Assembly: GCA_964533295.1 (NCBI GenBank)
Contig: CAZHLM010000001.1
Span: 1,958 to 65,957 of the forward strand
DNA: 64,000 nucleotides
Direction: 5' to 3'
From: an uncultured Verrucomicrobiota bacterium
Lineage (GTDB): Bacteria; Verrucomicrobiota; Verrucomicrobiia; Palsa-1439
A program made the position numbers and the translations under genes. A model generated the notes under the pieces. The model searched no databases. It saw only the letters and a program-made list of their open reading frames with translations, and had not been told where the DNA came from. Below, one piece after another: positions 29,998 through 58,693 of this stretch. The number at the start of each line of letters is the position of its first letter. The stretch's first letter is position 1.

Positions 29998-30004
29998 GGG
30001 AACG

Positions 30005-31721: not shown

Positions 31722-31728
31722 GGCCGCC

Positions 31729-32136: not shown

Positions 32137-32217
32137 AGCAGTAGGCAGGAGGCGGTTGGCAGAAGGCAGTGAGCAGTCATTGATAACTGCCTTCTGCTCT
32201 CTGCCTCCTGCCTACTG
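32137..32217. repeat. 81-nt imperfect palindrome/hairpin in the tadE-tadG intergenic region
   Basis: Arms gcagtaggcaggaggcggttggcagaaggcagt / actgccttctgctctctgcctcctgcctactg (about 27 of 32 positions complementary), loop gagcagtcattgata. No T-run follows. Confidence 0.5.
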
Positions 32218-32231
32218 ATCACTGGAGATTT

Positions 32232-32663: not shown

Positions 32664-32856
32664 CGTCCCCATTAAGGCGGACTGAGACGAACGTTTCGGA
32701 ACGGATTCCGAAAGGCTGCCGGGCTTAAGAAGGAGTTCGTGACGGCCACCTAGGTGGCCCGCCATTCGCAAAGCACCGCATCATAAAGTCCGTCCCCTCG
32801 GCCCGCATCCCAGTCCTGGACAACCCATCGAAGTGTCTTTCAAGAGAGTGATTCTC

Positions 32857-38982: not shown

Positions 38983-41900
38983 ATGTCACAAGACCAACAC
39001 AATCCGAAGCCAGCGACGTGCCGGACAATCTTGCTAACCGATGATCCGGCTGCTAATGACAATTTTGGTGGTGCACACCAGCGTCTGGCTGATGCTTTGA
39101 CAGAGCTAGTTTGGAATGAACCAGGCGGCCGAACAATAGGCCTTGAGGGAGACTGGGGCTCTGGCAAATCGACTGTCGTCAAGCTGCTGCAACGAAAAGC
39201 GGAGGAAACCCGTTCGACTGATTGCTCAGTTGTTATCTTCGACGCTTGGGCTCATCAAGGAGATCCGCTCCGCCGAACTTTCCTGGAACATTTGATGATC
39301 CACTTCCAGGCATTGAAATGGCTCAATCCAAAGCTGTGGACGACGAGGCGAGAGGAACTAGCTCGACGACGCAGGGTCATCGAAAGGACCACTACGCCCC
39401 GCCTTGGACGGTTTGGGAAAATACTTGCACTAACACTGGCGCTGACACCTGCGGGATTGGCGCTGCTTGAAGCTGGGTTACTGCAAGGCGTCTCGTTTGC
39501 ACTGTTTAGCAGCTTACCACCCAACATTCTTTTTATTGTGGGTCTTGTTTTGTGTCTCCTGCCATTTGTCCTGTTGATCGCTAATTTTCGCAACCCGGAA
39601 GGCTGGTCGCTTCTTGTTCAGAAGGAAGAGCTAGACGCCACAACTGAAGTTGTCGAGACACCTGAGCCGACTTCGGTCGAATTTGCCACCTCGTTTCATC
39701 AGCTATTCGACGAAGCTCTCGAACCAATCTCGCGCCGAGTCTTGATTGTCCTGGACAATCTGGATAGGGTTCCCGTGGGCGATGCAAGCTCCATGCTCTC
39801 AACACTGCAAACGTTTCTAGAGTATGGCCAATACGCTCAAGTCAATTGGTTGAGCAGAGTATGGGTTCTGATTCCCTATGATCGGGATGGGCTGGCCCGA
39901 CTGTGGTCAACAGCAGTTAATAAAGCGGCTGCCGGTGATATGACATCAGAACCATCCGAGGCAGTGTCGGACGCCTTTTTCGCGAAACGATTCCAGATAC
40001 TGTTTCACGTTTCGCCCCTGATTCGCTCGGATTGGCACGGATATTTCTTGCGACTACTACGTGAGGCATTTCCAGATCATGACGAGACGGATTTTCATGC
40101 AGTTTATAGGATTTTTGATACGCTTCGCGACATCAGCGACGAATCACCCACACCACGCAACATTAAAGCGTTTGTGAATCAAATCGGCGCAATTCACCGA
40201 CAATGGGGGGACACCTTTCCGCTCTCTCACATAGCCTATTTCGTGATTACGCCCAATGGCCGGTCAGCCGCCTTTGCTGAGGGTCTTCGAAATGGGCAAC
40301 ACCCAGACCAACGCGTGGCCGGCTTGCTAGGCGAGAATGCTCGTGACAACCTGGCGGCCATGATGTTTAACGTTGAGGTCCAACTGGCTCGTCAACTACT
40401 CCTCCGTGATCCCGTTTTAGCCGCACTAAGCGAGGGCAATGCCGAAGCACTCTCCGAACTTGCCAAGAACAATGCTACCGGCTTCTGGGAGGTTCTAGAA
40501 AAAACACCATTTCTGATGTGGGCAGATGGGCAGGAGAAGTCCATCGCCTGTGCTGCTACTGCATTGAGTAAATCCGGCCTCCTTAGCACTGCATCACCAT
40601 ACTTTTCGCGCCAGGTGCGCCATGATATTTGTCAAGCCACGTTGAGAGTGAAACGATGGCCCATAGAGGATGCTCAAGTTGCGACAGGAGTCGCAGATCT
40701 ATTGTCAATCAGCGATGGTAACCGTGGAGTTGCACCACGGATCTTGATTGCTATAAGCGAAGCAGTGCCCTCAGGAGGCCGACTCGAAGGATCTACCCTA
40801 TCAATGTGGACTGCTGGCTTACTGACAGTGCTGCAAGGCTATAAAGAGCATGGGCTCAACAGCCTCTTCGAGAGTAGCGGTGTCCCAGTTCATGCCAAGG
40901 CAGAAGGTTTCCTAGATGCCTGCATTCACATGGCGAGGCAAGACCCGGATGGAGTCTACTGGTCCACACTTCGCCCTAGAGTGGAATTGCCCGAGCTTGA
41001 CACGGTTGTCAACGGATGGGTGATCAACGGTAGCTTTGGCCAGGATCAATTGCGTGCTATCCGTGTTGTGAGGGCTGCGATACCAAACTGGGATTGGCAA
41101 AATTTCATTGCGAACGTTTCGGCGCGACTTAATGCGACCAACAATCTGCCGCCAACAGAAACGGTATCTCTACTGGAGGCGCTTTGGATCCTCAGAAGCT
41201 CAGATCCACGAGCAGATGCAACCATGCGTAAATTGGCGCAACAAGAGGGCCATATCGCTCATCAACTGTGGTTCGCTCAGCAGAGTAATCATGAGGAAGG
41301 CGTGGCATGGTGCAGCCTTGTACTGCTCTACTGTGATCCAGCCATAGCGAGCGCGGTGGATAGTGGCAATTCAAGTGTAGGCCGAAGTTATCTTTCGCAA
41401 CGTCTGACACAGTCTGATACCCAGCAAGCGGATTTTGTGAGAAGCACGGCAGACATCTTGCGCAGAGTCAACCAACTAGACCTGGTGGCTCAGGTGCTAG
41501 AAGCCAACCGCTCGGCACACAATTGGGTAGTGGGAATCATTCGCTATCTGCGACCACTCGGCGAGGTGTCAAGGATCCTTCAACCCTCAGTGATATGTCA
41601 GCATTGGATCATACTCCGACAACTTCTCGGGGAAGACTACTTATCTATTCTTGAGGAATTACTGGTCCAAACGGACCTAGTCCAAGTGATATGCACGCGC
41701 GATTTTGAGGCGCAAGACGCTGGCTTGTACCTCGATCTTGCTGGCGCCGGTGCATTGCACAATTCGAATTTTGCGAAGTGGTCGATTGGTGGCCTTAGAA
41801 AATTAGAGGAGGCTAATTGGGTAGCTGCATGTGAAGCAGAGTCTGATTTGTTGAACTTTGTTGTCGCTCTCAGGAAAGCTGAGTTTGATATAGGCTTAGG

Positions 41901-42414
41901 GCAACCGTTTGCTGATGCTCTGCACGCCCATGCTAAGCGACTAGCCACTGGCTCGATTACTCTTTCGAAACTACAGGGTGAGTGGGACCACGTGGTTGGG
42001 GCTCTTAGTGATCAAACTCGACGCGTTTTTCGGCGCAGTCTATACTATGTTGCCGAAGACACCGACGGCCAATTGTCAAGCCAATTCTTGGATCTCTATG
42101 GAGGCGAACTCGCTGATAAGGAGATTCTTCAGGAGGAAAACCGCTTTGTTATTCAGCTACTGGTCCCCATTCTGAAGACTCGCAACGCGAGGGGATTGCG
42201 GTGGACTGCGGAACTTGTCGAGAAACATCCGGACATTCTTTCTACCCAGCCGATGGATATTGTCGCTGACTTTCGGCAACGTATCGGCTCTATGCTGCAA
42301 GGAGAAGAAGCTGAAGAAGTAAAAACTTTGGTCAGCCGATTGGCCACAGCGCTGAATATCAAGATCGACAGCGGCTACCAAAGGACGGAGGACGAAGCCG
42401 AAAGCACCGTTTGA
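38983..42414 (+). CDS. KAP-family P-loop NTPase (1143 aa) with internal TM hairpin
   Basis: Walker A GLEGDWGSGKSTVVKLL, FDAWAHQGDPLRRTFLEHLMIHF (KAP signature), TM insertion LALTLALTPAGLALL...LFIVGLVLCLLPFVLL, Walker B VLIVLDNLDR. GC ~48-50%, well below the window average. Confidence 0.75.
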   Translation: MSQDQHNPKPATCRTILLTDDPAANDNFGGAHQRLADALTELVWNEPGGRTIGLEGDWGSGKSTVVKLLQRKAEETRSTDCSVVIFDAWAHQGDPLRRTFLEHLMIHFQALKWLNPKLWTTRREELARRRRVIERTTTPRLGRFGKILALTLALTPAGLALLEAGLLQGVSFALFSSLPPNILFIVGLVLCLLPFVLLIANFRNPEGWSLLVQKEELDATTEVVETPEPTSVEFATSFHQLFDEALEPISRRVLIVLDNLDRVPVGDASSMLSTLQTFLEYGQYAQVNWLSRVWVLIPYDRDGLARLWSTAVNKAAAGDMTSEPSEAVSDAFFAKRFQILFHVSPLIRSDWHGYFLRLLREAFPDHDETDFHAVYRIFDTLRDISDESPTPRNIKAFVNQIGAIHRQWGDTFPLSHIAYFVITPNGRSAAFAEGLRNGQHPDQRVAGLLGENARDNLAAMMFNVEVQLARQLLLRDPVLAALSEGNAEALSELAKNNATGFWEVLEKTPFLMWADGQEKSIACAATALSKSGLLSTASPYFSRQVRHDICQATLRVKRWPIEDAQVATGVADLLSISDGNRGVAPRILIAISEAVPSGGRLEGSTLSMWTAGLLTVLQGYKEHGLNSLFESSGVPVHAKAEGFLDACIHMARQDPDGVYWSTLRPRVELPELDTVVNGWVINGSFGQDQLRAIRVVRAAIPNWDWQNFIANVSARLNATNNLPPTETVSLLEALWILRSSDPRADATMRKLAQQEGHIAHQLWFAQQSNHEEGVAWCSLVLLYCDPAIASAVDSGNSSVGRSYLSQRLTQSDTQQADFVRSTADILRRVNQLDLVAQVLEANRSAHNWVVGIIRYLRPLGEVSRILQPSVICQHWIILRQLLGEDYLSILEELLVQTDLVQVICTRDFEAQDAGLYLDLAGAGALHNSNFAKWSIGGLRKLEEANWVAACEAESDLLNFVVALRKAEFDIGLGQPFADALHAHAKRLATGSITLSKLQGEWDHVVGALSDQTRRVFRRSLYYVAEDTDGQLSSQFLDLYGGELADKEILQEENRFVIQLLVPILKTRNARGLRWTAELVEKHPDILSTQPMDIVADFRQRIGSMLQGEEAEEVKTLVSRLATALNIKIDSGYQRTEDEAESTV

Positions 42415-42485: not shown

Positions 42486-44051
42486 ATGGCTACCCAACTT
42501 CCTCTTGTCCCCAACTCCCAGGCGAATGGCCGGCTCGACATCAAGCAGCTTGAGTCCTGGCTGTGGGACGCCGCCTGCTCCATCCGCGGCGCCCTGGACG
42601 CGCCCAAGTTCAAGGACTACATCCTGCCCCTGATCTTCGTCAAGCGCCTCTCGGACGTCTTTGACGACGAGATCGCGCGCCTAATGGAGGAGTTCGGCAG
42701 CGAGAAGACGGCGCGCTCGCTTGTGAAGAAGGACCACTCCCTGGTCCGCTTCTACATTCCCCCCGCCGGCACCTGGGCCGCCATCCGCCAGTCCGCCACC
42801 GGCGTGGGCCAGCGGGTCACCGACGCCCTGCGCGCCATCACCCGCGAGAACCCGTCGCTCCAGGGTGTGATCGACATCGTGGACTTCAACGCCACGGTCA
42901 GCGGCCAGCGCATCCTGGACGACGGCAAGCTGTGGTCCCTGATCGAGATTATCAGCCGGCACCGGCTGGGCCTGAACGACGCCGAGCCCGACATCCTGGG
43001 CCGGGCCTACGAGTACCTGCTGCGCAAGTTCGCGGAGGGCCAGGGCCAGAGCGCGGGTGAGTTCTACACCCCGGAGGGCGCCGGCTGGCTGGTGGCGCGT
43101 CTTCTCAACCCTAAGCCAGGCCAAGTCGTGGACGACCCAACATGTGGGTCGGCGGGCCTCCTGGTGAAGGCTCAATTGGTGGCGCGCGAACACGATGGGC
43201 ACGACGCCCAGCCGCTCCGGCTGTACGGCCAGGAGCTGAACCACGTCACCTACGCCATCGCCAAGATGAACATGATCATCCACGACATGGAGGGGGAGAT
43301 CGTCATCGGCGATACGCTGCGCAGCCCGAAGCTGCTGGAGGGCAGCCGGCTCAAGCGCTTCGACCTGGTGGCCGCCAATCCGATGTGGAACCAGGACGGC
43401 TATGGCACGGCCTTCTACGAGAACGATCCCTTCGAGCGCTTCACGCACGTGCCGCCGGCCAGCTCCGCCGACTGGGGCTGGGTCCAGCACATGGCGGCCT
43501 CGCTCAATGACGCCGGCCGGGCCGCCATTATCCTGGACACCGGCGCGGTCTCGCGCGGTAGCGGCGGCCAGAGTGGCAACAAGGAGAAGGACGCGCGCCG
43601 GGCCCTGGCCCAGCGCGATTGGATCGAAGGCGTGGTGCTGCTGCCCGAGAACCTGTTCTACAACACGACCGCGCCGGGCATCATCCTGGTGCTCAACAAG
43701 GCCAAACCGGCCAGACGGCGCGGCCAGATCATGCTCATCAACGCGTCGCGGGAGTTCGAGAAGGGCCGGCCTAAAAATTTCATTCCGGAGGCCGGCATCC
43801 GCAAGATCGCGGACGCCTACCATGCCTGGAAGCCGGCCGAGAAGTTCGCACGTATCATCACTTTGGCCGAGGCCGAGCAGAACGACTGGAACCTGAGCCC
43901 GTCGCGCTACGTGGACACGGGTGAGGCCGAGCAGCACCGCGACGTGCAGGGCATCATCGACGATCTGGCGACTCTGGAAGTCGAGGCTGCCGCGCTGGAT
44001 ACCGAACTGAACGGGATTTTGAAGGGACTGGGTTATCAGCCCTATGCCTAG
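42486..44051 (+). CDS. hsdM: Type I restriction-modification system methyltransferase subunit
   Basis: HsdM N-domain (WDAACSIRG...KDYILPLIFVKRLSDVFDDE). Motif I region PTCGSAGLL. Motif IV ANPMWN (NPPF/W-type). Confidence 0.85.
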   Translation: MATQLPLVPNSQANGRLDIKQLESWLWDAACSIRGALDAPKFKDYILPLIFVKRLSDVFDDEIARLMEEFGSEKTARSLVKKDHSLVRFYIPPAGTWAAIRQSATGVGQRVTDALRAITRENPSLQGVIDIVDFNATVSGQRILDDGKLWSLIEIISRHRLGLNDAEPDILGRAYEYLLRKFAEGQGQSAGEFYTPEGAGWLVARLLNPKPGQVVDDPTCGSAGLLVKAQLVAREHDGHDAQPLRLYGQELNHVTYAIAKMNMIIHDMEGEIVIGDTLRSPKLLEGSRLKRFDLVAANPMWNQDGYGTAFYENDPFERFTHVPPASSADWGWVQHMAASLNDAGRAAIILDTGAVSRGSGGQSGNKEKDARRALAQRDWIEGVVLLPENLFYNTTAPGIILVLNKAKPARRRGQIMLINASREFEKGRPKNFIPEAGIRKIADAYHAWKPAEKFARIITLAEAEQNDWNLSPSRYVDTGEAEQHRDVQGIIDDLATLEVEAAALDTELNGILKGLGYQPYA

Positions 44052-45363
44052 GCCAAAGAAGGTGCAACAGCCTGCAAAGGATGTACCTTCAGATGCTTCC
44101 GCGGTAGCGATAGCGCAGTTTCCTGTTGAGTGGCCTCTGTCCACTCTCGGTGAGCTGTTCGAAATTCAACAGGGCAAGGCCTTGTCGCCAGAAAGCCGAA
44201 ATGGCAAGGCATCCAGGCCCTTCTTGCGGACCGCGAACGTCTTCTGGGGAAAACTGGATCTGACAACAGTTGACCAAATGGACTTTACGGACCAGGAGGC
44301 AGCACGCCTCAATCTACAAGCTGGTGATCTTCTGGTCTGTGAGGGTGGCGATATTGGCCGTACTGCCCTGTGGCATGGGGAGATCGAGGGTTGCAGTTAT
44401 CAGAACCACATCCATCGATTGCGTTCAAAACGAGAATACATTCAGCCGTCGTTCTACATGTACTGGATGCAGGCGGCTATGCAACTCTTCCGGCTATATG
44501 AAGGAACGGCTAACCGGACGACCATTCCCAATCTTTCCAAGGCACGCCTGAGCGCTTTTCAAGTACCGGTTCCGCCCCTCCGCGAGCAGCGCGCCATCGC
44601 CCACGTGCTCTCCCGGATTCAGGCCGCCGCCCAGACCCAGGCCGCCATCGCGGAGCGGGCGCGCGAATTGAAGCGCGCGCTCATGGCCAGGCTCTTCACG
44701 GAGGGCCTGCGCGGCGAGCCGTTGAAGGAGACTGAGATCGGGCCGATGCCGGAGAGTTGGGAGATTGCCGAGTTGGGTCAACTCGCCGACATCGTCTATG
44801 GTGCTCAGGCCGCTGTGGCCCATGCAACCGACCCATCCATCGGCACGCCAATCTTTACGAATGTGAATATCACGAATGATGGCCAGTTGGACTTGCAGCT
44901 CCTTCGATTCTATAAGATTCCGAAGGACAGGAGAGACAGATTGATCCTTCAAAAGGGCGACATCTTGTTCAACTGGCGGAGCGGCAGCCAGGACCATGTG
45001 GGCAAAACGGCCCTCTTCGATCTCGACGGTGAATACACCTTCTCGTCGTTCATTCTTCGATTCAGAAAGTTTGGACCAGTAAGCAACGATTTCTTGTATC
45101 GTCAACTTCAACATTTGAAGTCGCAAGGCTTCTTTGCGCGCAATCGCCAACAATCGTCAGTGAACTCAGTGTTCAATTCGAGCGTCGCCGCGAAAATCCC
45201 GATTGCCGTTCCATCAGATATGGAGCAGCGTGAGATCACTCGTGCTCTTCAAGCTATAGACGCCAAAATCATCTCTGCGGACCGCAAACAGGGACGGCTG
45301 GAGGAGTTGTTCCGGGCCATGCTGGGGCAGTTGATGACGGGTAGAATAAGGGCTAGGGAGTAA
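44044..45363 (+). CDS. hsdS: Type I restriction-modification system specificity subunit (two TRDs)
   Basis: Overlaps the hsdM end. Conserved central repeat PPLREQRAIAHVLSRIQAAAQTQAAIAERARELKRALMARLFTEG and distal repeat QREITRALQAIDAKIISADRKQGRLEELFRAMLGQLMTG. GC ~55%. Confidence 0.8.
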   Translation: MPRPKKVQQPAKDVPSDASAVAIAQFPVEWPLSTLGELFEIQQGKALSPESRNGKASRPFLRTANVFWGKLDLTTVDQMDFTDQEAARLNLQAGDLLVCEGGDIGRTALWHGEIEGCSYQNHIHRLRSKREYIQPSFYMYWMQAAMQLFRLYEGTANRTTIPNLSKARLSAFQVPVPPLREQRAIAHVLSRIQAAAQTQAAIAERARELKRALMARLFTEGLRGEPLKETEIGPMPESWEIAELGQLADIVYGAQAAVAHATDPSIGTPIFTNVNITNDGQLDLQLLRFYKIPKDRRDRLILQKGDILFNWRSGSQDHVGKTALFDLDGEYTFSSFILRFRKFGPVSNDFLYRQLQHLKSQGFFARNRQQSSVNSVFNSSVAAKIPIAVPSDMEQREITRALQAIDAKIISADRKQGRLEELFRAMLGQLMTGRIRARE

Positions 45364-45368: not shown

Positions 45369-48300
45369 GTGACGACGCCCACCCCCCGCGAGATGTTCGA
45401 AGCGCCTGACTTGACATTTTTTCAGAGTGCAAAGTTCGAACGCCAGCGATTTGAGCGCAAAGAAGCGCCCACAATGGAACAGGCCCGCCTGGACAAGCCC
45501 GCGAATCCAGCCGGAGCCTTCAAGCACAAACTCCAGGCACTGCGCGAAGACCTTCAACGTGTGCTGTGCAGCTTTGCCATCACAAACCCGGATGGCGGGT
45601 TATTTGTGCTAGGAATAGACAATGATGGGGCTGTGCGTGGCCTCAACCATCTCAAAGACAATGAACTTGCCCTGCTTGTCAATGCTCACGAGTGGTTAGA
45701 GCATGTTTCCGTACAAGCCCGTCAGCACGAATGCCTAGACGCCCAAGGCCAACCCAATTTCATCTACTTGTTCTATGTGCCCGGGACCAGGTTTGCCTGC
45801 TCGCCCATGGGTCAAGTTTGGTGGCGCAATGGCGAGCACACTAGGGAATTGACTTCGGATGAAATCTGGCAACTCAAGGCTGATCGCCAAATCGTTGAGT
45901 TCGAAGTTCAATTGTTCGGGGTCTATAGTCCTGATGAGTTGGACAAAGAGGTATCTCAACGCTTCCATGCAGCCATCATCGAACAAAAGCGGCTGCCAAT
46001 AGATACCAGCATGGAGAGTGTCCTCGCGGGCGAGGGGGTCATCGTTCATCAAAGCGGGCAATATTATTGGACTCGCGCCGGCTACCTGTTCCTTTCTCTT
46101 AACCCGCGTCGGCGTATTCCTGGAGCATATGTGCGCGCGCTGAAATTCGAAGAGCGCCGTGCGACGGCTGATCAACGATTCAACCCCTCGTATGATCAAG
46201 ACTTCGACGGACCGTTGCCGCGCCAAATCGACAAACTGCGCGCGTTCTTCAAGCAAGGGGCCTATTTCCGCACGTTCACGTACCGTGCCCAGGGGGCATT
46301 GGTCGACGAGTTGGAATTGCCGTCAGAAGCGGTCGATGAGGCTCTGGTGAATGCCATTGTGCATCGGAGCTATGCCATACTCAATCAACCCATACTTATC
46401 AAGAAGTACGCGGATCAGTTGGTCGTAGATAGCCCTGGACGCTTCGTCCAGAATCTCGGCAAACTGGAGTTTGGCGTATCGGAGGTGCCAGCTGGCCGTA
46501 GCGAACCACGCAATCCAATTCTGATGGGGTGGTTTCGTCTTTTGACCGATGACCGCGGTGAAAAATACGTCAAGCAATTTAGGGAAGGCACCCGGACCAT
46601 TGCTCGCTCGATGCAATTGGCTGGCAAACCAGAGCCAATATATCGAACTAATGGGCAGGTTAGCCTCACATTAGAAAACAGTCTGACAGAGTTGGAAACT
46701 CGCACTGCAGCTGCTGAAATCCCAAGCCAGGAGCGCTTTACCAATCTGTTTCCAATAGCGCTTCTGCGGCAGGGCTTTCCCTTTTCGCCTGCCCGAGGTG
46801 ATTTATTCGATCTATCGCGCCGTATTACTACTGCCCTCCGCGATGCGCTGCAAAACCTGGGCTGGTTTATCGACTCCGATTACCGAGGCGAGTTAGTCGC
46901 ACATCGACGGCAATCCGAATTTGACCTTCCCGCAATTGCGAAGTATATGCGCCTATATCCGGCCTATCGCTTTGACGTACGAGACTATGGCGGGACGCTA
47001 TTTCTCTGTATTGATTATGCTGTGCGAGAACGCAATGTCCGAACCCTGGCGGAGGTCTTGCGCGATCTACCAAGGGAAGAGCTGCTCAACCGGCGGGCTA
47101 CTTACCGGCAGAACCAGAGCTGGCAGACTGGCCTGTGTTTCATTCGGTCGATTGATGACGAGTACTCCGACTTGGAGCTAAGTGAAAGCCGCCAGACGAT
47201 TACCGTCGCGAATACTGATGTGCTGCCGGATTTGTCTGTTGAAAAGCTGGTGCGCATCCTGCGCAAACATGATGTGCGCTTTGACCTACACCGTGAGATC
47301 AAGCAGCGTGCATTGGCGTTAATGGTGGGTGCAGCCCGAGAGCGCGCTGAGAAATCCTTGCAAACGGCAGCAAATCTGGCGAACCAGATGTTTCCATTGA
47401 GCTGGAACGGCATTCGCGCGTTGCTCAACCCAAGCCCAGCTCGCCTTGAAGCGCCGGTATTCGATGTGCGGGAAAATCTAGAGGAGCCTGAAGTGGAGTT
47501 TGCCCAACGACGTCAGACCGATGACATCGTCGATGGTTTGACTCGCTACGGTGCATTTCGGCCCGTGCGCGACACAATCAACTTGGTATTGGTCTGCACT
47601 TCCAGGGTATCTCAGCGCATGGAGAGTCTTGTTGGGCAACTCCAGCGCGGTAGTCGAAAGTACCGAGGCGCTAGCCAAACGTTTGCGGCTCAATTCGAAA
47701 TTGGCCCACGCGTCGTCGTCCCGCGTCCGGAAGACTATCTGGGCGCCTGTCGATCCGTAATTGGCCAACTAGACCGGGGAAAACATTGGTTGTTCCTGGT
47801 ATATGCGCCGGAGAACTTGTATTCGCGCGCCGAGTATCAGGCGCCCTACTATCGCGTCAAACGCTTTCTCTTGGAAGAAGGCTTCCCTTCGCAGATGGTC
47901 GATGACCCTACTTTGCAGGACCCGAATTGGAAAGACCTAAATCTGGCACTCAATATCGTTGCCAAATGCGGATTTGAGCCCTGGGTGCTGACAAAGCCGT
48001 TAGCAGAGGCTGATTGCTTCATCGGCTTGTCATTCTCGCGCATTCCTACAAAGAAAGGGGTGAAGCGATTCTTTGGCTACGCTAATGTCTTCAACAACTT
48101 GGGACAATGGAAATTCTACAAGGGAAGTTCTCAAGCATCGACTTTAGACAATCGCGAAGCTGACACCGCTGGACTGGTTCGGCAAACCCTGGAAGAGTTC
48201 CAGCGTACGGTGTCGGTCCAACACCTACACATTCACTGGTCAGAAAAGTTTAGCCGCCAGATGCGGCAGGTTGTTGCCCAAGCTGCCCAAGAGGTTCAAC

Positions 48301-48731
48301 CAGGCATCACGGTGCATTTTGTGCATGTGAATACCGGTCATCCAGTACGCTTCTATGATCCTAACCCTCAAGGCGACGGGAGCTTGCCAAGGGGAATCTA
48401 TGTAGTAACCAATCCGCATCGGCAATTCTACATCTCAACCACAGGTTACAACCTGAAACAGAAAGCCATGGGCACGCCTGTCACGTTGGAGGTAAATGTT
48501 CATAGCGTGGCGAACAATCAACTCATTCACTCTGATTTGGCTTGTGTTGCACAACACATCCTTAGCTTGACCAAGCTTAACTGGGCGTCGACACGGCCCT
48601 TCTCGCGCGAACCTATTACACTCAAGTATGCAGGGAATATTGCCTATCTAATGAATGCCTTTCTTGCTGAGGGTGGAGAGCAGGTATTTCGGCTTAATCC
48701 CCTCTTGGAGAAAACGCCCTGGTTTTTGTAG
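45369..48731 (+). CDS. Fusion protein: Schlafen/AlbA_2 DNA/RNA-binding domain + HATPase_c_4 + linker + Argonaute-like MID + catalytically inactive PIWI (short-pAgo-like module)
   Basis: GTG start 6 nt after the hsdS stop (alternative ATG at 45393). AlbA_2 core SFAITNPDGGLFVLGIDNDGAVRGL. HATPase_c_4 VDEALVNAIVHRSYAILNQPILIKKYADQLVVDSPGRF. MID pocket YYRVKR..GFPSQMV..NLALNIVAKCG (compare eukaryotic Ago Y-x3-K...TQCV...NLxLKINxKLGG). PIWI start DCFIGLSFSR replacing GxDVxH (no catalytic Asp). C-terminal EPITLKYAGNIAYLMNAF resembles the PIWI PxPxYYA motif. GC ~52%. Confidence 0.6.
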   Translation: MTTPTPREMFEAPDLTFFQSAKFERQRFERKEAPTMEQARLDKPANPAGAFKHKLQALREDLQRVLCSFAITNPDGGLFVLGIDNDGAVRGLNHLKDNELALLVNAHEWLEHVSVQARQHECLDAQGQPNFIYLFYVPGTRFACSPMGQVWWRNGEHTRELTSDEIWQLKADRQIVEFEVQLFGVYSPDELDKEVSQRFHAAIIEQKRLPIDTSMESVLAGEGVIVHQSGQYYWTRAGYLFLSLNPRRRIPGAYVRALKFEERRATADQRFNPSYDQDFDGPLPRQIDKLRAFFKQGAYFRTFTYRAQGALVDELELPSEAVDEALVNAIVHRSYAILNQPILIKKYADQLVVDSPGRFVQNLGKLEFGVSEVPAGRSEPRNPILMGWFRLLTDDRGEKYVKQFREGTRTIARSMQLAGKPEPIYRTNGQVSLTLENSLTELETRTAAAEIPSQERFTNLFPIALLRQGFPFSPARGDLFDLSRRITTALRDALQNLGWFIDSDYRGELVAHRRQSEFDLPAIAKYMRLYPAYRFDVRDYGGTLFLCIDYAVRERNVRTLAEVLRDLPREELLNRRATYRQNQSWQTGLCFIRSIDDEYSDLELSESRQTITVANTDVLPDLSVEKLVRILRKHDVRFDLHREIKQRALALMVGAARERAEKSLQTAANLANQMFPLSWNGIRALLNPSPARLEAPVFDVRENLEEPEVEFAQRRQTDDIVDGLTRYGAFRPVRDTINLVLVCTSRVSQRMESLVGQLQRGSRKYRGASQTFAAQFEIGPRVVVPRPEDYLGACRSVIGQLDRGKHWLFLVYAPENLYSRAEYQAPYYRVKRFLLEEGFPSQMVDDPTLQDPNWKDLNLALNIVAKCGFEPWVLTKPLAEADCFIGLSFSRIPTKKGVKRFFGYANVFNNLGQWKFYKGSSQASTLDNREADTAGLVRQTLEEFQRTVSVQHLHIHWSEKFSRQMRQVVAQAAQEVQPGITVHFVHVNTGHPVRFYDPNPQGDGSLPRGIYVVTNPHRQFYISTTGYNLKQKAMGTPVTLEVNVHSVANNQLIHSDLACVAQHILSLTKLNWASTRPFSREPITLKYAGNIAYLMNAFLAEGGEQVFRLNPLLEKTPWFL

Positions 48732-48734
48732 ATT

Positions 48735-48929
48735 ATGTCCGAGCATCGGGAAGCCCAGGACCCTCTCATCCCCATTGTCGTCGAGGCAAGCTGCGCTTAT
48801 CTCTCAACTGACAACGCCTTGCCCATGCACTGCGGCAGGAGTGGAAAGGCTGTTCCGAGTGATGTGGCGCAGTTGATGACAGGGCGGGTGAAGGTGACAG
48901 GGCTGTTGGATACCTCGTTGCAAAGATAG
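48735..48929 (+). pseudogene. hsdR 5' remnant (64-aa N-terminal fragment of a type I restriction subunit)
   Basis: MSEHREAQDPLIPIVVEASCAYLSTDNALPMHCGRSG aligns with the intact hsdR N-terminus MSERREVQDPLIRYAVEVGWTYLSADDALILRGG at 51047. Low-GC codons. Starts 4 nt after the pAgo-like stop. Confidence 0.6.
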
Positions 48930-49014
48930 AAATAGTGTAGAAACTAAGTTTATGATGGAATTACTACATCTATGATATAATCATGCCTGTCGGTTATGTT
49001 ACGCAAGCCCTCCG
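48930..49014 (+). promoter_or_regulatory. AT-rich promoter region for abiEi with a -10-like TATAAT
   Basis: ctatgatataatcatg contains tataat. Repeated atgat motifs. Sharp GC drop just upstream of the abiEi start. Confidence 0.3.
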
Positions 49015-49848
49015 ATGAATACGACAAGCGCTCTGGCAGGCATTTCTGAGACCAACCGCCGCCACCTCTCCCAGTTGCACCGCCATACCCAGGGGTTGGT
49101 GGACGTGGAGGAATCGGCGCGGGTGCTGGGCCTGGACCGGACTGAGGCCGCGAAACTGCTGGCGCAGTTGGCGGCCCAGGGGTGGGTCCGCCGTCTGCGG
49201 CGCGGTCTCTATCTTCTCATCCCGCTCGAGGCCACCTCCCCTGAAGACTGGAGCGAGGACGCCTGGATCGTGGCCGAGCGCGTCTTTCGGCCGTGCTACA
49301 TCGCCGGGTGGAGCGCCTGTGAGCACTGGGGCTTTACCGAGCAGATCTTTCGCGATGTGGCAGTCTTCACGGCTGCGTCCATCCGTGAGCGCCGTCTGAC
49401 CATTGACCCGGCCGTTTTTGTACTGCGCAAGGTTTCTAAGCGGCTATTGTTCGGCACGCGGACCGTCTGGCGCAAGGCGACGCGAGTTCCGGTCTCCGAC
49501 CCCACACGCACGGTCGCCGATATCCTCGAGGCTCCAAAATGGGGGGGCGGCATCCGCCACGTAGCCCAGATCGTGGAAGCTTACCTGGCCTCCGACCATC
49601 GCGACGAGATGCTCTTGCTCGACTACATCGAGCGCATCGGTAACACTGCGGCGGCCAAGCGCCTGGGCTACCTCCTGGAGGCGCGCGGGCTGAGCGCCCC
49701 TATATTGATTGAACGATTGCCAACGTCGGTCACGACGGGCTACGCCCTACTCGATCCGACTGTCCCTGCCCGTGGGCCGCTGGTGGCCAGGTGGAAGGTA
49801 CGGGTAAACGTCGATGTAGCCGTGCGAGCGAGGGATATGGGCGAATGA
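49015..49848 (+). CDS. abiEi: AbiEi-family type IV antitoxin/transcriptional regulator (wHTH)
   Basis: N-terminal wHTH (VDVEESARVLGLDRTEAAKLLAQLAAQGWVRRLRRGLYLL), an AbiEi_4-like domain. Positioned immediately upstream of, and overlapping, the AbiEii gene. Confidence 0.65.
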   Translation: MNTTSALAGISETNRRHLSQLHRHTQGLVDVEESARVLGLDRTEAAKLLAQLAAQGWVRRLRRGLYLLIPLEATSPEDWSEDAWIVAERVFRPCYIAGWSACEHWGFTEQIFRDVAVFTAASIRERRLTIDPAVFVLRKVSKRLLFGTRTVWRKATRVPVSDPTRTVADILEAPKWGGGIRHVAQIVEAYLASDHRDEMLLLDYIERIGNTAAAKRLGYLLEARGLSAPILIERLPTSVTTGYALLDPTVPARGPLVARWKVRVNVDVAVRARDMGE

Positions 49849-51038
49849 TCCCGCGCATCGAGATCAACGAAGCCGTGCGCGCCTGGGGCCTGCGGCACGA
49901 CGTCGTCGAGAAGGACTATGTGCTCGGCTGGCTGTTGATGGGCATTGGTGCCGACCCGCGGCTGCAGACGCAGTGGATTTTCAAAGGCGGCACGTGCATC
50001 AAGAAGTGCTATATCGAGACCTATCGCTTCTCCGAGGATCTGGATTTCACCCTGACCGCGACGGCCAGCCGTGATCCGGCGGAGATCGCGCAGATGGTCA
50101 GGGCCGTCTGCGCGCGAGTGAGCGAGGCCAGCGGGATCGAGTTCCCGCCTGAGCTGACCGAGTTCCGGGCCACCCCCAATCCTCGCGGCGGCGTCACCCT
50201 GCGCGGCAAGGTGGGCTATCGCGGGCCGCTTCAGCCGCCGACCCTGCCCAAGCTTCAATTTGACCTGACCACGGACGAGATCATCATCCGGCCCCCGGTG
50301 CTCCGCCCCGTCTACCACTCCTACTCGGATCGGCCCGCCCAGCCAGCCCGCATCCACTGTTACCCGATTGAGGAGGTATTGGCCGAGAAGACCCGGGCGA
50401 TGGGAGAACGCGGCCGGCCGCGCGATCTCTACGACATCATCCGGCTCTCGCGCGGCGGACGCCGGGTCTTGCAGTTGGACGCGGCGGGCGTGCGCGAGAT
50501 CCTGGAGCGGAAGTGCGCGCATCGGGGACTGCCCATACCGACGTTGGCGGCGCTGGAGGCCTCGCCCAACTGGGTGGAACTGGAGTCGGAGTGGGCGAAC
50601 ATGCTGGGCCACCAGCTGCCAGCCCTGCCCCCGCTCGAAACCTTCCTGGCTGACCTGGCCACCTTCTTCGATTGGCTGAACGGCGCGCCCGTGGTGGACC
50701 TGCCGGCTATCACCGAAGAGGAGGCCAGCGATCCCGCCTGGCAGCCGCCGGCGGCAGTCGCTTTACCTTCGGAATGGGGCGTGGCCGCGCCCCTGGAGGG
50801 GATCCGGTTTGCCGGTGCCAATCGCCTGCTCCTGGAATTGAACTATCGGCCACAAAAAGGCCAACCAGGCGTGCGGCTCGTGGAGCCGTACTCGTTCCGG
50901 TACAGCCGCAAAGGGTACCTGCTGTTCTACGGCCGCAACGTGGAGCGTCCGCGCATCAGCGCCTACCGGGCCGACCGCATCCTGGGCGCAAAGGTGACGA
51001 CCCAGCCGTTCACGCCTATCTGGCGGGTGGAGTTTTAG
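49845..51038 (+). CDS. abiEii: AbiEii/AbiGii-family nucleotidyltransferase toxin (DUF1814)
   Basis: EKDYVLGWLL...IFKGGTCIKKCY...RFSEDLDF, the hallmark motifs of AbiEii nucleotidyltransferases. Confidence 0.75.
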   Translation: MIPRIEINEAVRAWGLRHDVVEKDYVLGWLLMGIGADPRLQTQWIFKGGTCIKKCYIETYRFSEDLDFTLTATASRDPAEIAQMVRAVCARVSEASGIEFPPELTEFRATPNPRGGVTLRGKVGYRGPLQPPTLPKLQFDLTTDEIIIRPPVLRPVYHSYSDRPAQPARIHCYPIEEVLAEKTRAMGERGRPRDLYDIIRLSRGGRRVLQLDAAGVREILERKCAHRGLPIPTLAALEASPNWVELESEWANMLGHQLPALPPLETFLADLATFFDWLNGAPVVDLPAITEEEASDPAWQPPAAVALPSEWGVAAPLEGIRFAGANRLLLELNYRPQKGQPGVRLVEPYSFRYSRKGYLLFYGRNVERPRISAYRADRILGAKVTTQPFTPIWRVEF

Positions 51039-51046: not shown

Positions 51047-53967
<2,921 letters not shown>

Positions 53968-53971
<4 letters not shown>

Positions 53972-54363
53972 CCATCGAGAAAGATACTATCAAGAAGGCG
54001 CGCTCAATGCGACGTCAGGCCTGGTCTGAAGCTGCCTTCCGGTCTCGTGTGACAGAATGGGCAATCAAGATCGGCGTGGAGCCAACGGAGGTTCACCTGC
54101 GGTCGATGCGGCGCAAGTGGGCATCGTGCTCGTCGCGCGGCCGGCTGACGTTCGATACCAGCCTGCTCCGCCAGCCGCGCGACTTCGCGGACTACGTCAT
54201 CGTCCATGAGTTGCTGCACTTGCGCGTTCCCAACCACGGCAAGCTCTTTAAGAGCCTGTTGTCCGCGCTTCTGCCTGGCCGGGAGCGGCATGGAAATTCC
54301 AGTAACGCGACTCCATCACGGTCCGGGAAGACGCGGACCCAGACACAACAACCTGACAGGTGA
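53968..54363 (+). CDS. YgjP-like / DUF45 (M48-type HExxH) metal-dependent hydrolase
   Basis: ATGA-coupled to hsdR. YVIVHELLHLRVPNHG carries the HExxH zinc motif typical of the YgjP/WLM family commonly linked to type I hsd loci. Confidence 0.6.
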
Positions 54364-56020: not shown

Positions 56021-56058
56021 TACAAAAAAGGGCGCCCTGGAGGACGCCCTTTCTTTCA
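56021..56058. terminator. Bidirectional rho-independent terminator between convergent genes
   Basis: aaaaaagggcgccctggaggacgccctttctttc: G+C stem flanked by an A-run and a T-run. Confidence 0.5.
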
Positions 56059-58560
56059 AAACAGACTAAGTTGCGCAGTCGACTGGACCTCAACTCTGCG
56101 CCTGCGTCTCGATACCGTTGTCACCGTTCCTTTCCAGGTCTCCAGCATCGGGCTGATCGCCGTCGGCGAGCCATAGGGCGCCTCGGTCACCAGCATGTCA
56201 TTGCCGGAAGAGAAGACGCCTTCAGACCGCCCGACCGTCAACTCGCCCATTGCCTTGCGAACCAGATCATTGAGTAAGTTGCCTTCGTCCCCTTCATCCA
56301 CCAGCGCACCGCCGACCTCGTCCCCATAAAACACCTGGGCCGCCAGCATCTTCGCGCCGATCAGGTCGAGGGCCGCTTCCTCCAGCGTGCTCTCATACAC
56401 CGGGAAGTACAGGCGCACCGGCTTCGGCGCACCCGGCCGGTACAGCCGCCTCATCGCCTGCCAGACCACGGCCAGCGACCACTCCATCTCGAAGAAGATG
56501 GCGGTCGAGAACATGGTCAGGTTCAGGCCGACCTGGACCAGCCGGGCATTGGTCAGCAGCACGTCGAACTCGTGGACGTGCTGCTTGATCCAACTGGCGC
56601 GCCTGGCCGGGGCCAGGCTGGGCTTGAGCACCCCAACCCGTAGCCCATGCGCACGCAGGCACTCCTGCAGGCGTGGCTGGATGTCGCGCTCCCCGGTCTG
56701 GCGCACGTACACGAGCGTCTTCCGGCCTTGATGGTACTCCGCCAGGGCGGTGTTCGTTGTCCACTCTTCCTTAGGCAACCACATGGGCGTGGTTGCCTCG
56801 CTACCGAGCACGGCCCCGAACTGCCGGACCAGCTCTCGGCGGCGGACCGCCCACTTGCCCCTGCCGGAGAGGCGCCGGTTGAAGAAGACCTGTTCCGGCC
56901 GGAACATGGCGTCGGGCCGGTTCAGTGCGGCGTTGAGCCACACGCTGATCGCGCCCTTGCCGGTCTCCTCCTCCATCGTGTCCAGCGCCCAGCGGAACAG
57001 GCCCTCGGGGGGCCGGGTCTGGCTGCCGTCCGCGTCTTCATACTGCGCCCGCATCTCGGGCGTCATCGGGATGCGGACCACCTCTTCCGAGTAGGCCGGA
57101 AGCGGCAGGCCCACGTCCTTCAGGGACGAGAAGGTGCAGTATTTCAGGCCGAGGCCGGCGATGGCCGGGCTGATGCCGGGCTTCTCGCTCACCGTCTCGA
57201 AGAACTTGGTGCCCGTGAAGGCGCCGTCGTCGGGCACGGCGGCATCCGCATCCACGAAGAACGTGCGCTTGAGCAGGCCATACTTCTCCACCCAGCGCTG
57301 CTCGTCGTTGAACGCGAACTGCTGCCGGACCTCCGGCACCAGCCGGTACAGCAGCCAGAAGATCGACGTGCTGTACCCGGCGAACAGCGTGCCGGTCAGT
57401 CCCAGCACATACCGGGCCGCCCGGGTTAGGTTCATCAGCGAGAAGCCCACCCCCGTGCCTTTAGATTTAGCCTGATGGATCTCGTCCACGAGGCACAGGC
57501 CGAAGACGCCGCGGGCCTTCTTCTTGGCATACTCGGCAGCCGGGACACGGCGCAGGGCGCTGTTCTCGAACAGCGGCGCCCCGCACACGAGCCGCCGGCC
57601 ATCACTGTCCTTGTCCATCTCTTTGTGTCTCCCCGTCTCCGGATCCCAGAACCGGCGCGTGATCGGCGCCTGGCAGAACCGGCGCTTGGTGCCGATGAAC
57701 TGCTCGGCCTGCGCCGGCGTGACCGGCTCGCGCGGATGGCCGTCATCGTCGTACTTCTCGGCCACGATCCCGCCGCAGTGCGGGCACGCGCAGTAGGTGA
57801 CCAGGCGGGATTGGACTTGCTCCGTCTCATCTCGCACGTAGACCCGGATCGTCCGCCTGGTCATCGCCGGCACGCGTCCGGAGCCCAGCTTGGCCGTCTC
57901 GTAGGAGAGGATGGCGAAGCTCTTCTCCGGCAGCGCCCCGGCCCGGTGGTCGGCGATGAACTGCGCCAGGCTGTACTTGCCGCTCAGGTCGTCCTCAGAG
58001 TTCTGGTCGCGGCTCACGCCCAGGCCCAGCCAGGCGTATCCACCGATCCGGCTGTCCAGCAGGTTGGGCTGCCGGGCACCGCGCCGGCGGGGGGGTGGAC
58101 TTTTCTCGCCACGCTTCAAGGACGCCCTGAGCGCCGTGATGACGGCCTCTCCGAGCGGGACCTTCTGGCGCCTGGCCTGGTGATTGACCGCTGCCAGGCA
58201 GTCCTCCGCGCCATGGCCTTCGAGCTGGCCCTCATCCAGGGTCAGGCCCAGCGTATCTCGCAGATAGGCCCCGATCCGGGCCGGCTTCGCGAGCGCCTTC
58301 ACGCTCACGTCCACGACCCGGCCGAGGGCGCCAGGCGTGACCTCCGGGATCTCCTTGGGCCAGTTCTCCTTGCCAGTGACGACGCCCGGCCCGACGACGA
58401 GCGCCGGATAGGGTGTCTGCCGCCTGTCCTTGCGCGCGTCCGCGGCGGCGATGTACTCGGCGATGGAAATGCCAACGGTGGTCTTACCAGCACGATCTCT
58501 TTCGTTTCCGAAAGCGCAGACTATGACTTCATCCGGAGCTGGTAATTGGTGAATTGGCAA
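56056..58560 (-). CDS. SNF2-family helicase with N-terminal P-loop segment
   Basis: TTG start. DEAH-type LVDEIHQAK, motif III LTGTLFAG, N-terminal GNERDRAGKTT. SNF2-like C-terminal helicase domain. Confidence 0.7.
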   Translation of the reverse strand: MPIHQLPAPDEVIVCAFGNERDRAGKTTVGISIAEYIAAADARKDRRQTPYPALVVGPGVVTGKENWPKEIPEVTPGALGRVVDVSVKALAKPARIGAYLRDTLGLTLDEGQLEGHGAEDCLAAVNHQARRQKVPLGEAVITALRASLKRGEKSPPPRRRGARQPNLLDSRIGGYAWLGLGVSRDQNSEDDLSGKYSLAQFIADHRAGALPEKSFAILSYETAKLGSGRVPAMTRRTIRVYVRDETEQVQSRLVTYCACPHCGGIVAEKYDDDGHPREPVTPAQAEQFIGTKRRFCQAPITRRFWDPETGRHKEMDKDSDGRRLVCGAPLFENSALRRVPAAEYAKKKARGVFGLCLVDEIHQAKSKGTGVGFSLMNLTRAARYVLGLTGTLFAGYSTSIFWLLYRLVPEVRQQFAFNDEQRWVEKYGLLKRTFFVDADAAVPDDGAFTGTKFFETVSEKPGISPAIAGLGLKYCTFSSLKDVGLPLPAYSEEVVRIPMTPEMRAQYEDADGSQTRPPEGLFRWALDTMEEETGKGAISVWLNAALNRPDAMFRPEQVFFNRRLSGRGKWAVRRRELVRQFGAVLGSEATTPMWLPKEEWTTNTALAEYHQGRKTLVYVRQTGERDIQPRLQECLRAHGLRVGVLKPSLAPARRASWIKQHVHEFDVLLTNARLVQVGLNLTMFSTAIFFEMEWSLAVVWQAMRRLYRPGAPKPVRLYFPVYESTLEEAALDLIGAKMLAAQVFYGDEVGGALVDEGDEGNLLNDLVRKAMGELTVGRSEGVFSSGNDMLVTEAPYGSPTAISPMLETWKGTVTTVSRRRRRVEVQSTAQLSLF

Positions 58561-58693
58561 TTGGGTGTGGTCATTTCATCCCAGCACCAATTACCAATCC
58601 CCACTTACCGACCCCGGAGTTCGGCGTCTGACGGTGACCGTGGATTTCGCCGGAGCGAGGGGTCACCGTCTCAGGCTCAAGGGCCTTCAGTCG

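Follow-up and report, generated by a model that had tools for sequence, protein, structure and literature searches.

An SLFN-pAgo protein, a Schlafen-GHKL ATPase-Argonaute fusion, encoded between hsdS and hsdR in a type I restriction-modification operon from an uncultured Verrucomicrobiota bacterium

Prokaryotic Argonaute proteins (pAgos) of the long-B type with N-terminal Schlafen/AlbA_2 domains were already recorded in 2018 (Ryazansky 2018, PMC6299218). The corresponding SLFN-pAgo family, which joins two immune protein families common to bacteria and humans, Argonaute and Schlafen, was characterized only in 2026 in a preprint (Kuzmenko et al., bioRxiv 10.64898/2026.05.29.728809, 30 May 2026). 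There, SLFN-pAgos are described as a monophyletic long-B group of 78 proteins of 1071–1187 amino acids (aa), which are composed of a Schlafen domain, a GHKL ATPase (PF13749) and PAZ/MID/PIWI domains without the catalytic tetrad. Their genes often lie in defence islands near restriction-modification (R-M), toxin-antitoxin and BREX systems and have no conserved partner. The characterized type member is RzAgo from Runella zeae (WP_028663822.1), whose structure was reported with N and PAZ lobes. RzAgo carries guide RNAs of ~21 nucleotides (nt) with a 5'-A and recognizes single-stranded DNA targets. Guide-RNA-dependent filaments hold its nuclease off, and its GHKL domain binds and hydrolyzes ATP (E314, N318), which leads to tetramerization. 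Upon addition of target DNA and ATP the Schlafen domain cuts tRNA, an activity abolished by the exchange D32A. Phage protection requires both nuclease and ATPase activities, the D72A variant is hyperactive and not dead, and RzAgo alone protects a heterologous host by abortive infection (10.64898/2026.05.29.728809). Here, we describe a diverged relative of RzAgo encoded at positions 45369–48731 of the forward strand of a 64,000-nt stretch of DNA from an uncultured Verrucomicrobiota bacterium of the lineage Palsa-1439 (assembly GCA_964533295.1, contig CAZHLM010000001.1, positions 1,958–65,957), which is called the window in the following. We consider it likely that this gene represents an autonomous SLFN-pAgo abortive-infection system, which entered a type I R-M operon as a cassette at its hsdS-hsdR junction.

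Parts of this locus also resemble other described systems. RsAgo from Rhodobacter sphaeroides is a catalytically inactive long pAgo which employs RNA guides against DNA targets. The nuclease PrrC is encoded between hsdS and hsdR in the EcoprrI type I locus, is held latent by the R-M complex and is activated by the Stp peptide of T4. Long-B systems respond to a recognized target by activation of an effector, which leads to abortive infection (PMC10620215). Prokaryotic Schlafens act as tRNases according to an independent paper (PMC13462974).

The SLFN-pAgo gene of the window is an uninterrupted open reading frame (ORF) of 1120 codons with a GTG start. GTG 45369 is the first possible start codon, with an in-frame TAG at 45354–45356. 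A Shine-Dalgarno sequence (AGGGAG) is located 8 nt 5' of the GTG, and in the family alignment the N-termini of the homologues (MSxxPTPREIF..) coincide with this start. Alignments of homologues cover the full length of the protein (E = 0), and independent sequencing runs yielded at least six metagenomic contigs with the same, unchanged protein and locus. Consequently, the ORF is far beyond chance. A scan of the genome collection returned no identical locus, the best match showing 42–54% identity over segments. The promoter and terminator scan gave nothing above background except a weak promoter-like site before the downstream gene abiEi. The ORF and all peptides quoted from it in a first-pass annotation made from the sequence alone are present, namely SFAITNPDGGLFVLGIDNDGAVRGL (residues 68–92), VDEALVNAIVHRSY (322–335), VVDSPGRF, YYRVKR (827–832), GFPSQMV, NLALNIVAKCG, IGLSFSR (885–891) and EPITLKYAGNIAYLMN (1081–1096).

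The 'pAgo' hidden Markov model (HMM) PDLC02394 of PADLOC-DB v2.0 (2023) matched residues 4–1120 of the protein on model positions 2–1121 of 1121 (E 3.6e-303). Full-length homologues were found at 33–60% identity, and the identity with RzAgo is 34.6% over 1076 aligned positions, i.e. over the full length. Thus, the protein belongs to the SLFN-pAgos, the 'extra-long' long-B pAgos with an N-terminal Schlafen and GHKL module ('Schlatpase'). Its length falls into the family range, and its defence-island setting with R-M and toxin-antitoxin neighbours is that of the family. A placement in the RzAgo clade is suggested by the end-to-end identity and the PDLC02394 match. The architecture is therefore already known and no new type of system is revealed; the earlier claim of an uncharacterized architecture is contradicted by the end-to-end match, by Ryazansky 2018 and by the 2026 preprint. 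The regions of the protein are the following:

45369–48731, + strand: SLFN-pAgo gene (ORF, PADLOC PDLC02394, RzAgo alignment)
45369–45910, + strand: Schlafen/AlbA_2 nuclease domain, ~residues 1–180 (Pfam, Foldseek, alignment; boundary inferred from the secondary structure of the model)
45930–46703, + strand: GHKL (Bergerat-fold) ATPase, ~residues 188–445 (Pfam, Foldseek, alignment; boundaries inferred)
46731–47570, + strand: N, L1, PAZ-like and L2 regions, ~residues 455–734 (Foldseek, PADLOC; sub-boundaries inferred from secondary structure)
47571–47985, + strand: MID domain, ~residues 735–872, with pocket residues Y827, K831, Q842 and K866 (family alignment, phmmer to AaAgo)
47986–48731, + strand: PIWI domain, ~residues 873–1120, with S888 at the position of the first catalytic Asp (phmmer against the Protein Data Bank (PDB), alignment)

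Order and length class are the same as in RzAgo, with Schlafen, GHKL ATPase and N/PAZ/MID/PIWI following each other and an inactive PIWI domain at the end. The composition of Schlafen/AlbA_2, HATPase_c_4 (GHKL), MID and inactive PIWI postulated in the first-pass annotation is supported by profile and fold evidence.

An AlphaFold2 model of the whole protein was calculated from a 13-sequence alignment (mean predicted local distance difference test score (pLDDT) 83.5) and searched against the PDB by Foldseek. The top matches were guide-RNA/target-DNA complexes of RsAgo (E 5e-32 to 2e-31), which is the best fold match of the Argonaute core. The match extends over ~795 columns and the entire RsAgo chain of 752–759 residues, with a template modelling (TM) score of 0.63–0.66 normalized to RsAgo. 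Further long pAgos ranked lower, as did eukaryotic Ago/PIWI proteins. Thus, residues ~455–1120 are modelled as a complete long-B N-L1-PAZ-L2-MID-PIWI core and not as a short pAgo. This match covers the PAZ region and does not distinguish a full from a reduced PAZ sub-type. The first-pass annotation had overlooked the N/L1/PAZ/L2 regions in residues 455–730, and its description of the protein as short-pAgo-like does not agree with the match to full-length RsAgo (E 5e-32). Further support comes from PADLOC, where numerous additional pAgo models match the C-terminal 400–640 residues and pAgo_II (class II, long) spans residues 485–1120. In phmmer searches against PDB sequences residues ~820–1120 matched the SPARTA short pAgo 8fex (E 3.5e-9) and also AaAgo (Aquifex), AfAgo and RsAgo. 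The predicted similarity of the C-terminus to MID/PIWI was found by phmmer, PADLOC and Foldseek alike.

When 1.84 billion cluster representatives were searched with a profile, stand-alone pAgos of ~700 aa aligned with profile positions ~470–1104 (E 1e-180 to 1e-195), and the fused Schlafen-pAgo architecture occurred in only ~13 full-length representatives. Another cluster representative, P0047 (1199 aa), carries a pAgo core of the same type (positions 469–1104, E 5e-178) behind an ADP-ribosylglycohydrolase (PF03747, E 4e-41) in place of the Schlatpase, and is a different single-chain fusion of a pAgo with an effector.

For the N-terminal half a separate model of residues 1–450 (pLDDT 87.5) was searched by Foldseek. 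It matched DIP2311 (3lmm), a structural-genomics protein composed of AlbA_2 and HATPase_c_4 (E 4e-17), followed by the human, pig and rat nuclease domains of SLFN11, SLFN14, SLFN12, SLFN13 and SLFN5 (E 4e-5 to 1e-3, probability 1.0). Weaker matches were observed to the catalytic (CA, GHKL) domains of histidine kinases. At the sequence level Pfam HATPase_c_4 (PF13749) was detected at residues 341–433 with a score above gathering (E 3.2e-7). The window protein shares the nuclease fold and the metal-binding motif E..(D/E).K with mammalian SLFN11, 12, 13 and 14 and with prokaryotic effectors such as the CRISPR-associated Cash (PMC13462974). Mammalian and prokaryotic Schlafens cleave tRNA or rRNA for antiviral growth arrest. 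In contrast to the mammalian proteins with their bilobed domain and SF1 helicase, the window protein possesses one lobe, a GHKL ATPase and an Argonaute sensor.

In order to compare functional residues, the RzAgo gene was taken from the genome collection (L016) and aligned with the window protein and 12 homologues. The nuclease motif E24-RQRF-E29-R-K31 (E24-x4-E29-x-K31) is present; all 14 family members compared share E24 and K31 and carry D or E at position 29. The peptide VDEALVNAIVHRSY holds the catalytic E324 and the Mg-binding N328, both invariant in the family alignment. In the MID domain Y827, Y828, K831, Q842 and K866 are invariant, and the pocket aligns with the SPYYGIKEF motif of RzAgo. 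Residue by residue, E24, D32, K34, E314 and N318 of RzAgo correspond to E24, E29, K31, E324 and N328, and MID residues Y828 and K832 to Y827 and K831. Thus, nuclease (E24, E29, K31), ATPase (E324, N328) and MID (Y827, K831) residues of RzAgo are conserved in the window protein. Differences are found in the Schlafen box (CSFAI instead of SAFAN), at the D72 position (Asn85) and at the first PIWI position (Ser instead of Ala).

In the phmmer alignment to AaAgo the motif GIDIS (D502) stands opposite GLSFS (S888). Judged from this position, the PIWI domain is catalytically dead. S888 is invariant in 13 close relatives, RzAgo carrying Ala there, and the other PIWI motifs HIHWSEK and YAGNIA are, by local motif, also without the expected Asp and His. 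An intact tetrad, which would have characterized an ordinary long pAgo, was not found.

Domain composition, folds, conservation of key residues, family membership and genomic setting are observed at this locus; the kind of guide and target, the formation of filaments and tetramers, tRNA as substrate and phage defence are proposed for it solely by homology to RzAgo. By analogy, the protein would act as a stand-alone, single-polypeptide abortive-infection system. Its dead long-B core would take small 5'-phosphorylated RNA guides into the MID pocket, and the guide-loaded protein would be kept as inactive filaments. Pairing of the guide with complementary invader DNA would dissolve the filament, and binding of ATP to the GHKL domain would then produce a tetramer with the Schlafen domains paired into an active cleft. 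This cleft may cut tRNA, whereupon translation would stop and the infection would be aborted. The Schlafen domain as a tRNA-nuclease effector driven by the Argonaute sensor, as conceived in the first-pass annotation, has been shown experimentally for the homologue RzAgo (10.64898/2026.05.29.728809).

The proposed arrangement is distinct from that of other Argonaute-based systems. In the long-B systems BPAN, BPAS and BPAM the effector is a separate protein (nuclease, SIR2 or membrane protein), in contrast to the N-terminally fused Schlafen RNase and ATP switch of the window protein. With SPARTA, SPARSA and SPARDA it shares an inactive PIWI, which would likewise act as guide-dependent sensor for an attached or partner effector under control by oligomerization. 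Short pAgos, in contrast, are without N and PAZ lobes, need an APAZ partner and use NADase or DNase effectors, whereas the window protein has the complete long core and is a predicted RNase.

Several points weigh against an autonomous, RzAgo-like tRNase. The identity with the sole characterized member is just 35%, the mechanism of the window protein is proposed by homology, and the family reference is a preprint. Pfam SLFN_AlbA_2 (PF04326) was matched at residues 51–161 (E 5.5e-4) with 20.9 bits, below the gathering score of 25.3 bits. Pfam Piwi (PF02171) was not reported for the protein at E ≤ 0.1, and PIWI was therefore assigned from the PADLOC HMMs, phmmer against the PDB and Foldseek. Thus, of the Pfam domains expected in the first-pass annotation HATPase_c_4 alone exceeded its gathering score. 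The NCBIfam scan likewise produced an Argonaute match only far below threshold (23 bits versus a cut-off of 700). Residue-level mapping in PIWI covers the first catalytic position, whereas positions 2–4 were assessed from local motifs. The sequence of the Schlafen box is CSFAI(TN), and N85 stands in place of the acidic RzAgo residue D72, which corresponds to D252 of SLFN11. The R-M linkage described below belongs on the same side.

The substitutions in the Schlafen domain raise the question of its output. The domain could be inactive and serve as a nucleic-acid binder or regulator, or it could cut a substrate other than tRNA. The altered box, N85 and the sub-threshold AlbA_2 score agree with this explanation, and some sources label such proteins 'predicted HTH transcriptional regulator' (HTH, helix-turn-helix). 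Against it stand the conserved residues E24, E29, K31, E324 and N328, whose mutation kills the nuclease or ATPase of RzAgo, and the observation that D72A raises RzAgo activity instead of lowering it. Moreover, the T/I/M change in the box is common to the five closest full-length homologues and Asn at position 85 is found again in two others, which suggests tolerated variation. In several metagenomes the same intact ORF recurs without change, and no HTH domain is present. Apparently, an altered or lost output is improbable.

The second part of the proposed reading, the acquisition as a cassette, is based on the surroundings of the gene. On the + strand the order of genes is KAP NTPase, hsdM, hsdS, SLFN-pAgo, a 64-codon ORF, abiEi, abiEii-WYL, hsdR and a ygjP-like gene:

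38983–42414, + strand: KAP-family P-loop NTPase, ~1143–1154 aa, guanine-plus-cytosine (GC) content ~0.52 (PADLOC PifA and QatA N-termini weak, E 1e-12)
42486–44051, + strand: hsdM, methyltransferase, 521 aa, GC ~0.66 (N6_Mtase E 2.6e-89, HsdM_N E 8e-23, PADLOC MTase_I E 3e-191)
44044–45363, + strand: hsdS, specificity subunit, 439 aa (two Methylase_S stretches E 1e-30, PADLOC Specificity_I E 1e-93)
48735–48860, + strand: relic of the hsdR 5' end, start codon and ~35–40 diverged codons (direct repeat D1, alignment, tblastn)
48865–48929, + strand: probable relic of the hsdS 3' end, ..AQLMTGRVKVTGLLD..* (17/19-nt repeat D6, shared motif)
49015–49848, + strand: abiEi, antitoxin/regulator, 277 aa (Pfam AbiEi_4 and AbiEi_1, PADLOC AbiEi E 3e-83)
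49845–51038, + strand: abiEii, nucleotidyltransferase toxin with C-terminal WYL (AbiEii E 7e-39, WYL E 1.6e-4, PADLOC AbiEii E 1e-123)
51047–53971, + strand: hsdR, intact (Pfam SWI2_SNF2, HSDR_N, ResIII, T1R_D3-like)
53968–54363, + strand: ygjP-like metallopeptidase (Pfam YgjP-like E 1.7e-27)

In this operon hsdS and hsdM overlap by 8 nt. The hsdS stop codon ends at 45363 and the SLFN-pAgo gene starts at 45369, leaving a 5-nt spacer; between the end of its stop codon at 48731 and the following ATG at 48735 there are 3 nt. The tight packing noted in the first-pass annotation was thus correct, while its figures of 6 and 4 nt were each off by one. Unlike that of RzAgo, the gene of the window is wedged into a type I operon, with hsdS on one side and an hsdR relic on the other.

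The GC content along the SLFN-pAgo gene is 0.49–0.55 (~0.53), compared with 0.64–0.67 for hsdM, abiE and hsdR, in agreement with the foreign GC content reported earlier. The drop begins within hsdS, whose central conserved region has a GC content of 0.67 and whose second target-recognition domain and 3' end have 0.48–0.56, so that the low-GC block extends from ~44850 (second target-recognition domain) to ~49014.

Behind the SLFN-pAgo gene the 64-codon ORF (48735–48929) is a composite relic of an hsdR 5' part and a probable hsdS 3' part. Positions 48735–48835 form a 101-nt direct repeat of 70% identity with 51047–51147 at the true hsdR start. The translations also align (relic MSEHREAQDPLI.. 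and HsdR MSERREVQDPLI..), and the first 37 residues gave a tblastn match to the HsdR N-terminus of the related contig L090 (E 8e-9), so that the position between hsdS and hsdR, beside an hsdR relic, could be confirmed. The 17/19-nt direct repeat (TGGxGCAGTTGATGACxGG) occurs at the 3' end of hsdS (45323–45341) and in the relic 48865–48929. It encodes the C-terminal HsdS motif QLMTGR(V/I)(K/R), as seen in GQLMTGRIRARE* of the window HsdS and EKLMIGALRVTPLLE.. of the HsdS of L030, a Thermoanaerobaculia metagenome-assembled genome (MAG). BLASTP of the 64-aa ORF against HsdS proteins gave nothing significant, the hsdS part being too short for statistical support. Positions 48865–48929 are probably an hsdS 3' relic and a recombination scar, judged by the repeat, the motif and conservation in the scaffold L125 (see below). 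An interpretation of the 64-codon ORF as an hsdS relic only was overturned by the 101-nt repeat with the true hsdR start.

That start is ATG 51047, 9 nt past the abiEii stop; the TTG at 50672 given in the mechanical ORF list overlaps abiEii. ATG 51047 is supported by the HsdR N-terminus MSERREVQDPLIRYAVEVGW, which aligns both with the relic and with HsdR proteins of related loci.

In L030 (HsdM 57% and HsdR 58% identical) hsdM, hsdS, hsdR and a peptidase gene are contiguous without insert. Consequently, the GC drop, the hsdR and hsdS relics and this insert-free operon point to a low-GC cassette which recombined into the hsdS-hsdR junction. The linkage abiEi-abiEii-hsdR recurs in L090 at 83–87% identity. 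According to the simplest reading, two 'hsdS-X-hsdR' units, one bearing the pAgo and one bearing abiE, would have recombined and left the hsdR'::hsdS' scar between them. The same scar and abiE were found on the metagenome scaffold L125 (JRYK01142903.1, 1279 nt with N gaps), of which positions 102–560 were compared with window positions 48560–49060; its AbiEi is 92% and 76% identical over two segments, and the hsdS 3' relic is again upstream of abiEi. The gene before this scar encodes the C-terminus of a short pAgo (..SPITLRFSDLVGEIM..PQFKYYM*) and not of an SLFN-pAgo (PADLOC pAgo_I E 6.5e-31; PDB 9om4_B E 3e-34). This suggests, on a short and gapped contig, that different Argonaute cassettes were exchanged at the same hsdS-hsdR slot. 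The locus thus displays gene movement, with a low-GC cassette exactly at the hsdS-hsdR junction, donor hsdR/hsdS relics at its flank and an abiE cassette behind, and supports the interior of type I R-M operons as a hotspot for the exchange of defence cassettes. We see its main interest in the clean recombination scars and in the hint of Argonaute cassette swapping at one R-M junction.

The abiEi/abiEii pair (49015–51038), which had been overlooked in the first-pass annotation, is a type IV toxin-antitoxin pair inside the type I operon, directly before the intact hsdR. The abiEii start overlaps the abiEi stop (ATGA) and is set as in the gene call of L001. An AT-rich promoter-like region (48927–49014), with the promoter-like site at 48927–48956, precedes abiEi and is kept in L125 and L091. 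After hsdR, the ygjP-like gene is the usual tail gene of such hsd operons; a small HExxH ORF behind hsdR in L030 resembles it.

The position inside a type I operon requires a closer look at the linkage of the family to R-M genes. Full-length family loci were collected as contigs from one genome per species (27 loci). Type I hsd genes lie within ≤10 kb at 8 of these, several of them tightly packed and on the same strand (L006, L014, L018, L022). The SLFN-pAgo of a Candidatus Poribacteria MAG (L006, OZ242315.1, 5711–17633; 36% identity) is encoded inside a type I operon with the order hsdM, AAA_15/AAA_21 ATPase, small ORF, SLFN-pAgo, hsdS, hsdR, all on one strand and with ~10-nt gaps around the pAgo gene. 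The order is hsdR-hsdM-hsdS-pAgo in L018, hsdM-hsdS-hsdR-pAgo in L014 and L022, and pAgo-hsdS in the Poribacteria loci L005, L013 and L041. The closest non-Argonaute relatives of the Schlatpase are three proteins fused to type I HsdS specificity domains (P0056, P0057, P0154); in P0077 the Schlafen-GHKL module is fused to leucine-rich repeats. Fusions of Schlatpase with HsdS and the exchange of modules between pAgo and R-M are also described in the preprint (10.64898/2026.05.29.728809). The hsd association appears much commoner than chance, a judgement made by reasoning, and some functional cooperation with R-M may exist.

Among the three closest homologues (57–60% identity), in contrast, none has hsd neighbours. 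One adjoins Tex, RelB and AbiEii, another lies among PIN, DEAD/MZB helicase, Uma2 and MNT/HepT, and the third between MFS transporter and SEC-C proteins. The gene is probably autonomous, since these homologues lie in non-R-M contexts. The conserved linkage to hsdS/hsdR expected in the first-pass annotation was thus found at 0 of the 3 closest and 8 of the 27 full-length loci. A defence island with a cassette hotspot is the best-supported account of the R-M linkage.

The R-M-adjacent members (~30%: the window, L006, L014, L018, L022 and the Poribacteria loci) could nevertheless be functionally coupled to R-M. They would dock to HsdS/HsdM via the Schlatpase and serve as a second-line, PrrC-like back-up when restriction is evaded or inhibited, and different Argonaute cassettes (SLFN-pAgo in the window, short pAgo in L125) would replace each other at the hsdS-hsdR junction as a dedicated docking site. 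Such a coupling is held to be as improbable as a changed output of the Schlafen domain.

Marginally less credible is a true PrrC-type partnership, as favoured in the first-pass annotation, in which the Schlafen-Argonaute would be a latent tRNA nuclease silenced by association with HsdMSR and freed when a phage anti-restriction factor attacks. The gene occupies the PrrC slot of EcoprrI between hsdS and hsdR with its 5-nt and 3-nt spacers, hsd genes and HsdS-fused relatives recur as described, and the effector of the homologue RzAgo is a tRNase. Both systems thus share a position, an NTPase regulatory domain and, as predicted for the window protein, a tRNA-directed abortive-infection nuclease, and as a functional analogy PrrC, a tRNA-cutting nuclease parked in a type I operon, is apt. 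There is, in contrast, no sequence or fold relationship: PrrC consists of an ABC-type NTPase N-domain and an anticodon-nuclease C-domain, and the Pfam, NCBIfam and PADLOC scans gave no PrrC similarity but Schlafen, GHKL and pAgo matches only. SLFN-pAgos sense DNA via a guide, RzAgo is kept latent by its own guide-RNA filaments and protects a heterologous host alone, and the preprint survey found no conserved genetic partner (10.64898/2026.05.29.728809). Where R-M genes adjoin, the position of the pAgo varies (after hsdS, between hsdM and hsdS, after hsdR), and hsd linkage is unconserved. In the window an independent abiE cassette and relics of recombination lie between the gene and hsdR, an arrangement suggestive of a hotspot for cassettes. 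PrrC-type masking by the R-M complex is therefore unlikely, because the position is unfixed, the nearest relatives are without R-M, RzAgo is autonomous and PrrC similarity is lacking. The hsdS-hsdR junction behaves as an exchange site for defence genes and not as the seat of a PrrC-type partnership.

A single-chain short pAgo, i.e. MID-PIWI and an APAZ-like adaptor fused to an effector as in SIR2-APAZ-pAgo (SPARSA-type), is very hard to maintain: SPARTA short pAgos are the top sequence-only PDB matches of the PIWI region (E 3.5e-9) and residues 224–363 weakly match the PADLOC Aga_SIR2-PNTD models, but Foldseek matched full-length long pAgos with RsAgo best (~795 columns, whole 755-residue chain), the PADLOC class II (long) models and the ~700-aa stand-alone pAgos align with residues 485–1120 and ~470–1104, respectively, the preprint phylogeny places the family in long-B (10.64898/2026.05.29.728809), and no APAZ partner gene is found among the neighbours (hsdS, hsdR relic). 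A catalytically active long-A pAgo was ruled out by S888 at the first Asp position of the DEDX tetrad. A pseudogene or assembly artefact was ruled out as well; the ORF is intact with its key residues conserved, and the recovery of an identical locus in several independent sequencing runs speaks against an artefact.

As a diverged SLFN-pAgo with 35% identity to RzAgo, the window protein helps to separate essential from variable residues, namely in the Schlafen box, at the D72 equivalent and at the first PIWI position. The natural operon is suited to testing cooperation of R-M and Argonaute in abortive infection.

Further genes of the window were noted. The KAP NTPase adjoins hsdM upstream, has a low GC content like the pAgo gene and is possibly another imported defence gene; small DUF2188 and DUF3892 genes are located just upstream of it. 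Downstream of the R-M operon the − strand (56056–60244) encodes an 834-aa helicase-C protein and a protein of the DUF6094 methyltransferase family, a pair which may constitute another module of the island, for defence or from a mobile element. The window carries two tRNAs only. Upstream of the island very large secreted or surface-type proteins, apparently unrelated to the SLFN-pAgo, are encoded on the + strand (19923–37326), namely a 1442-aa ORF without Pfam matches, a DUF11-repeat protein of 1288 aa and a Big_13/Rax2/PKD/fn3 protein of 1497 aa.

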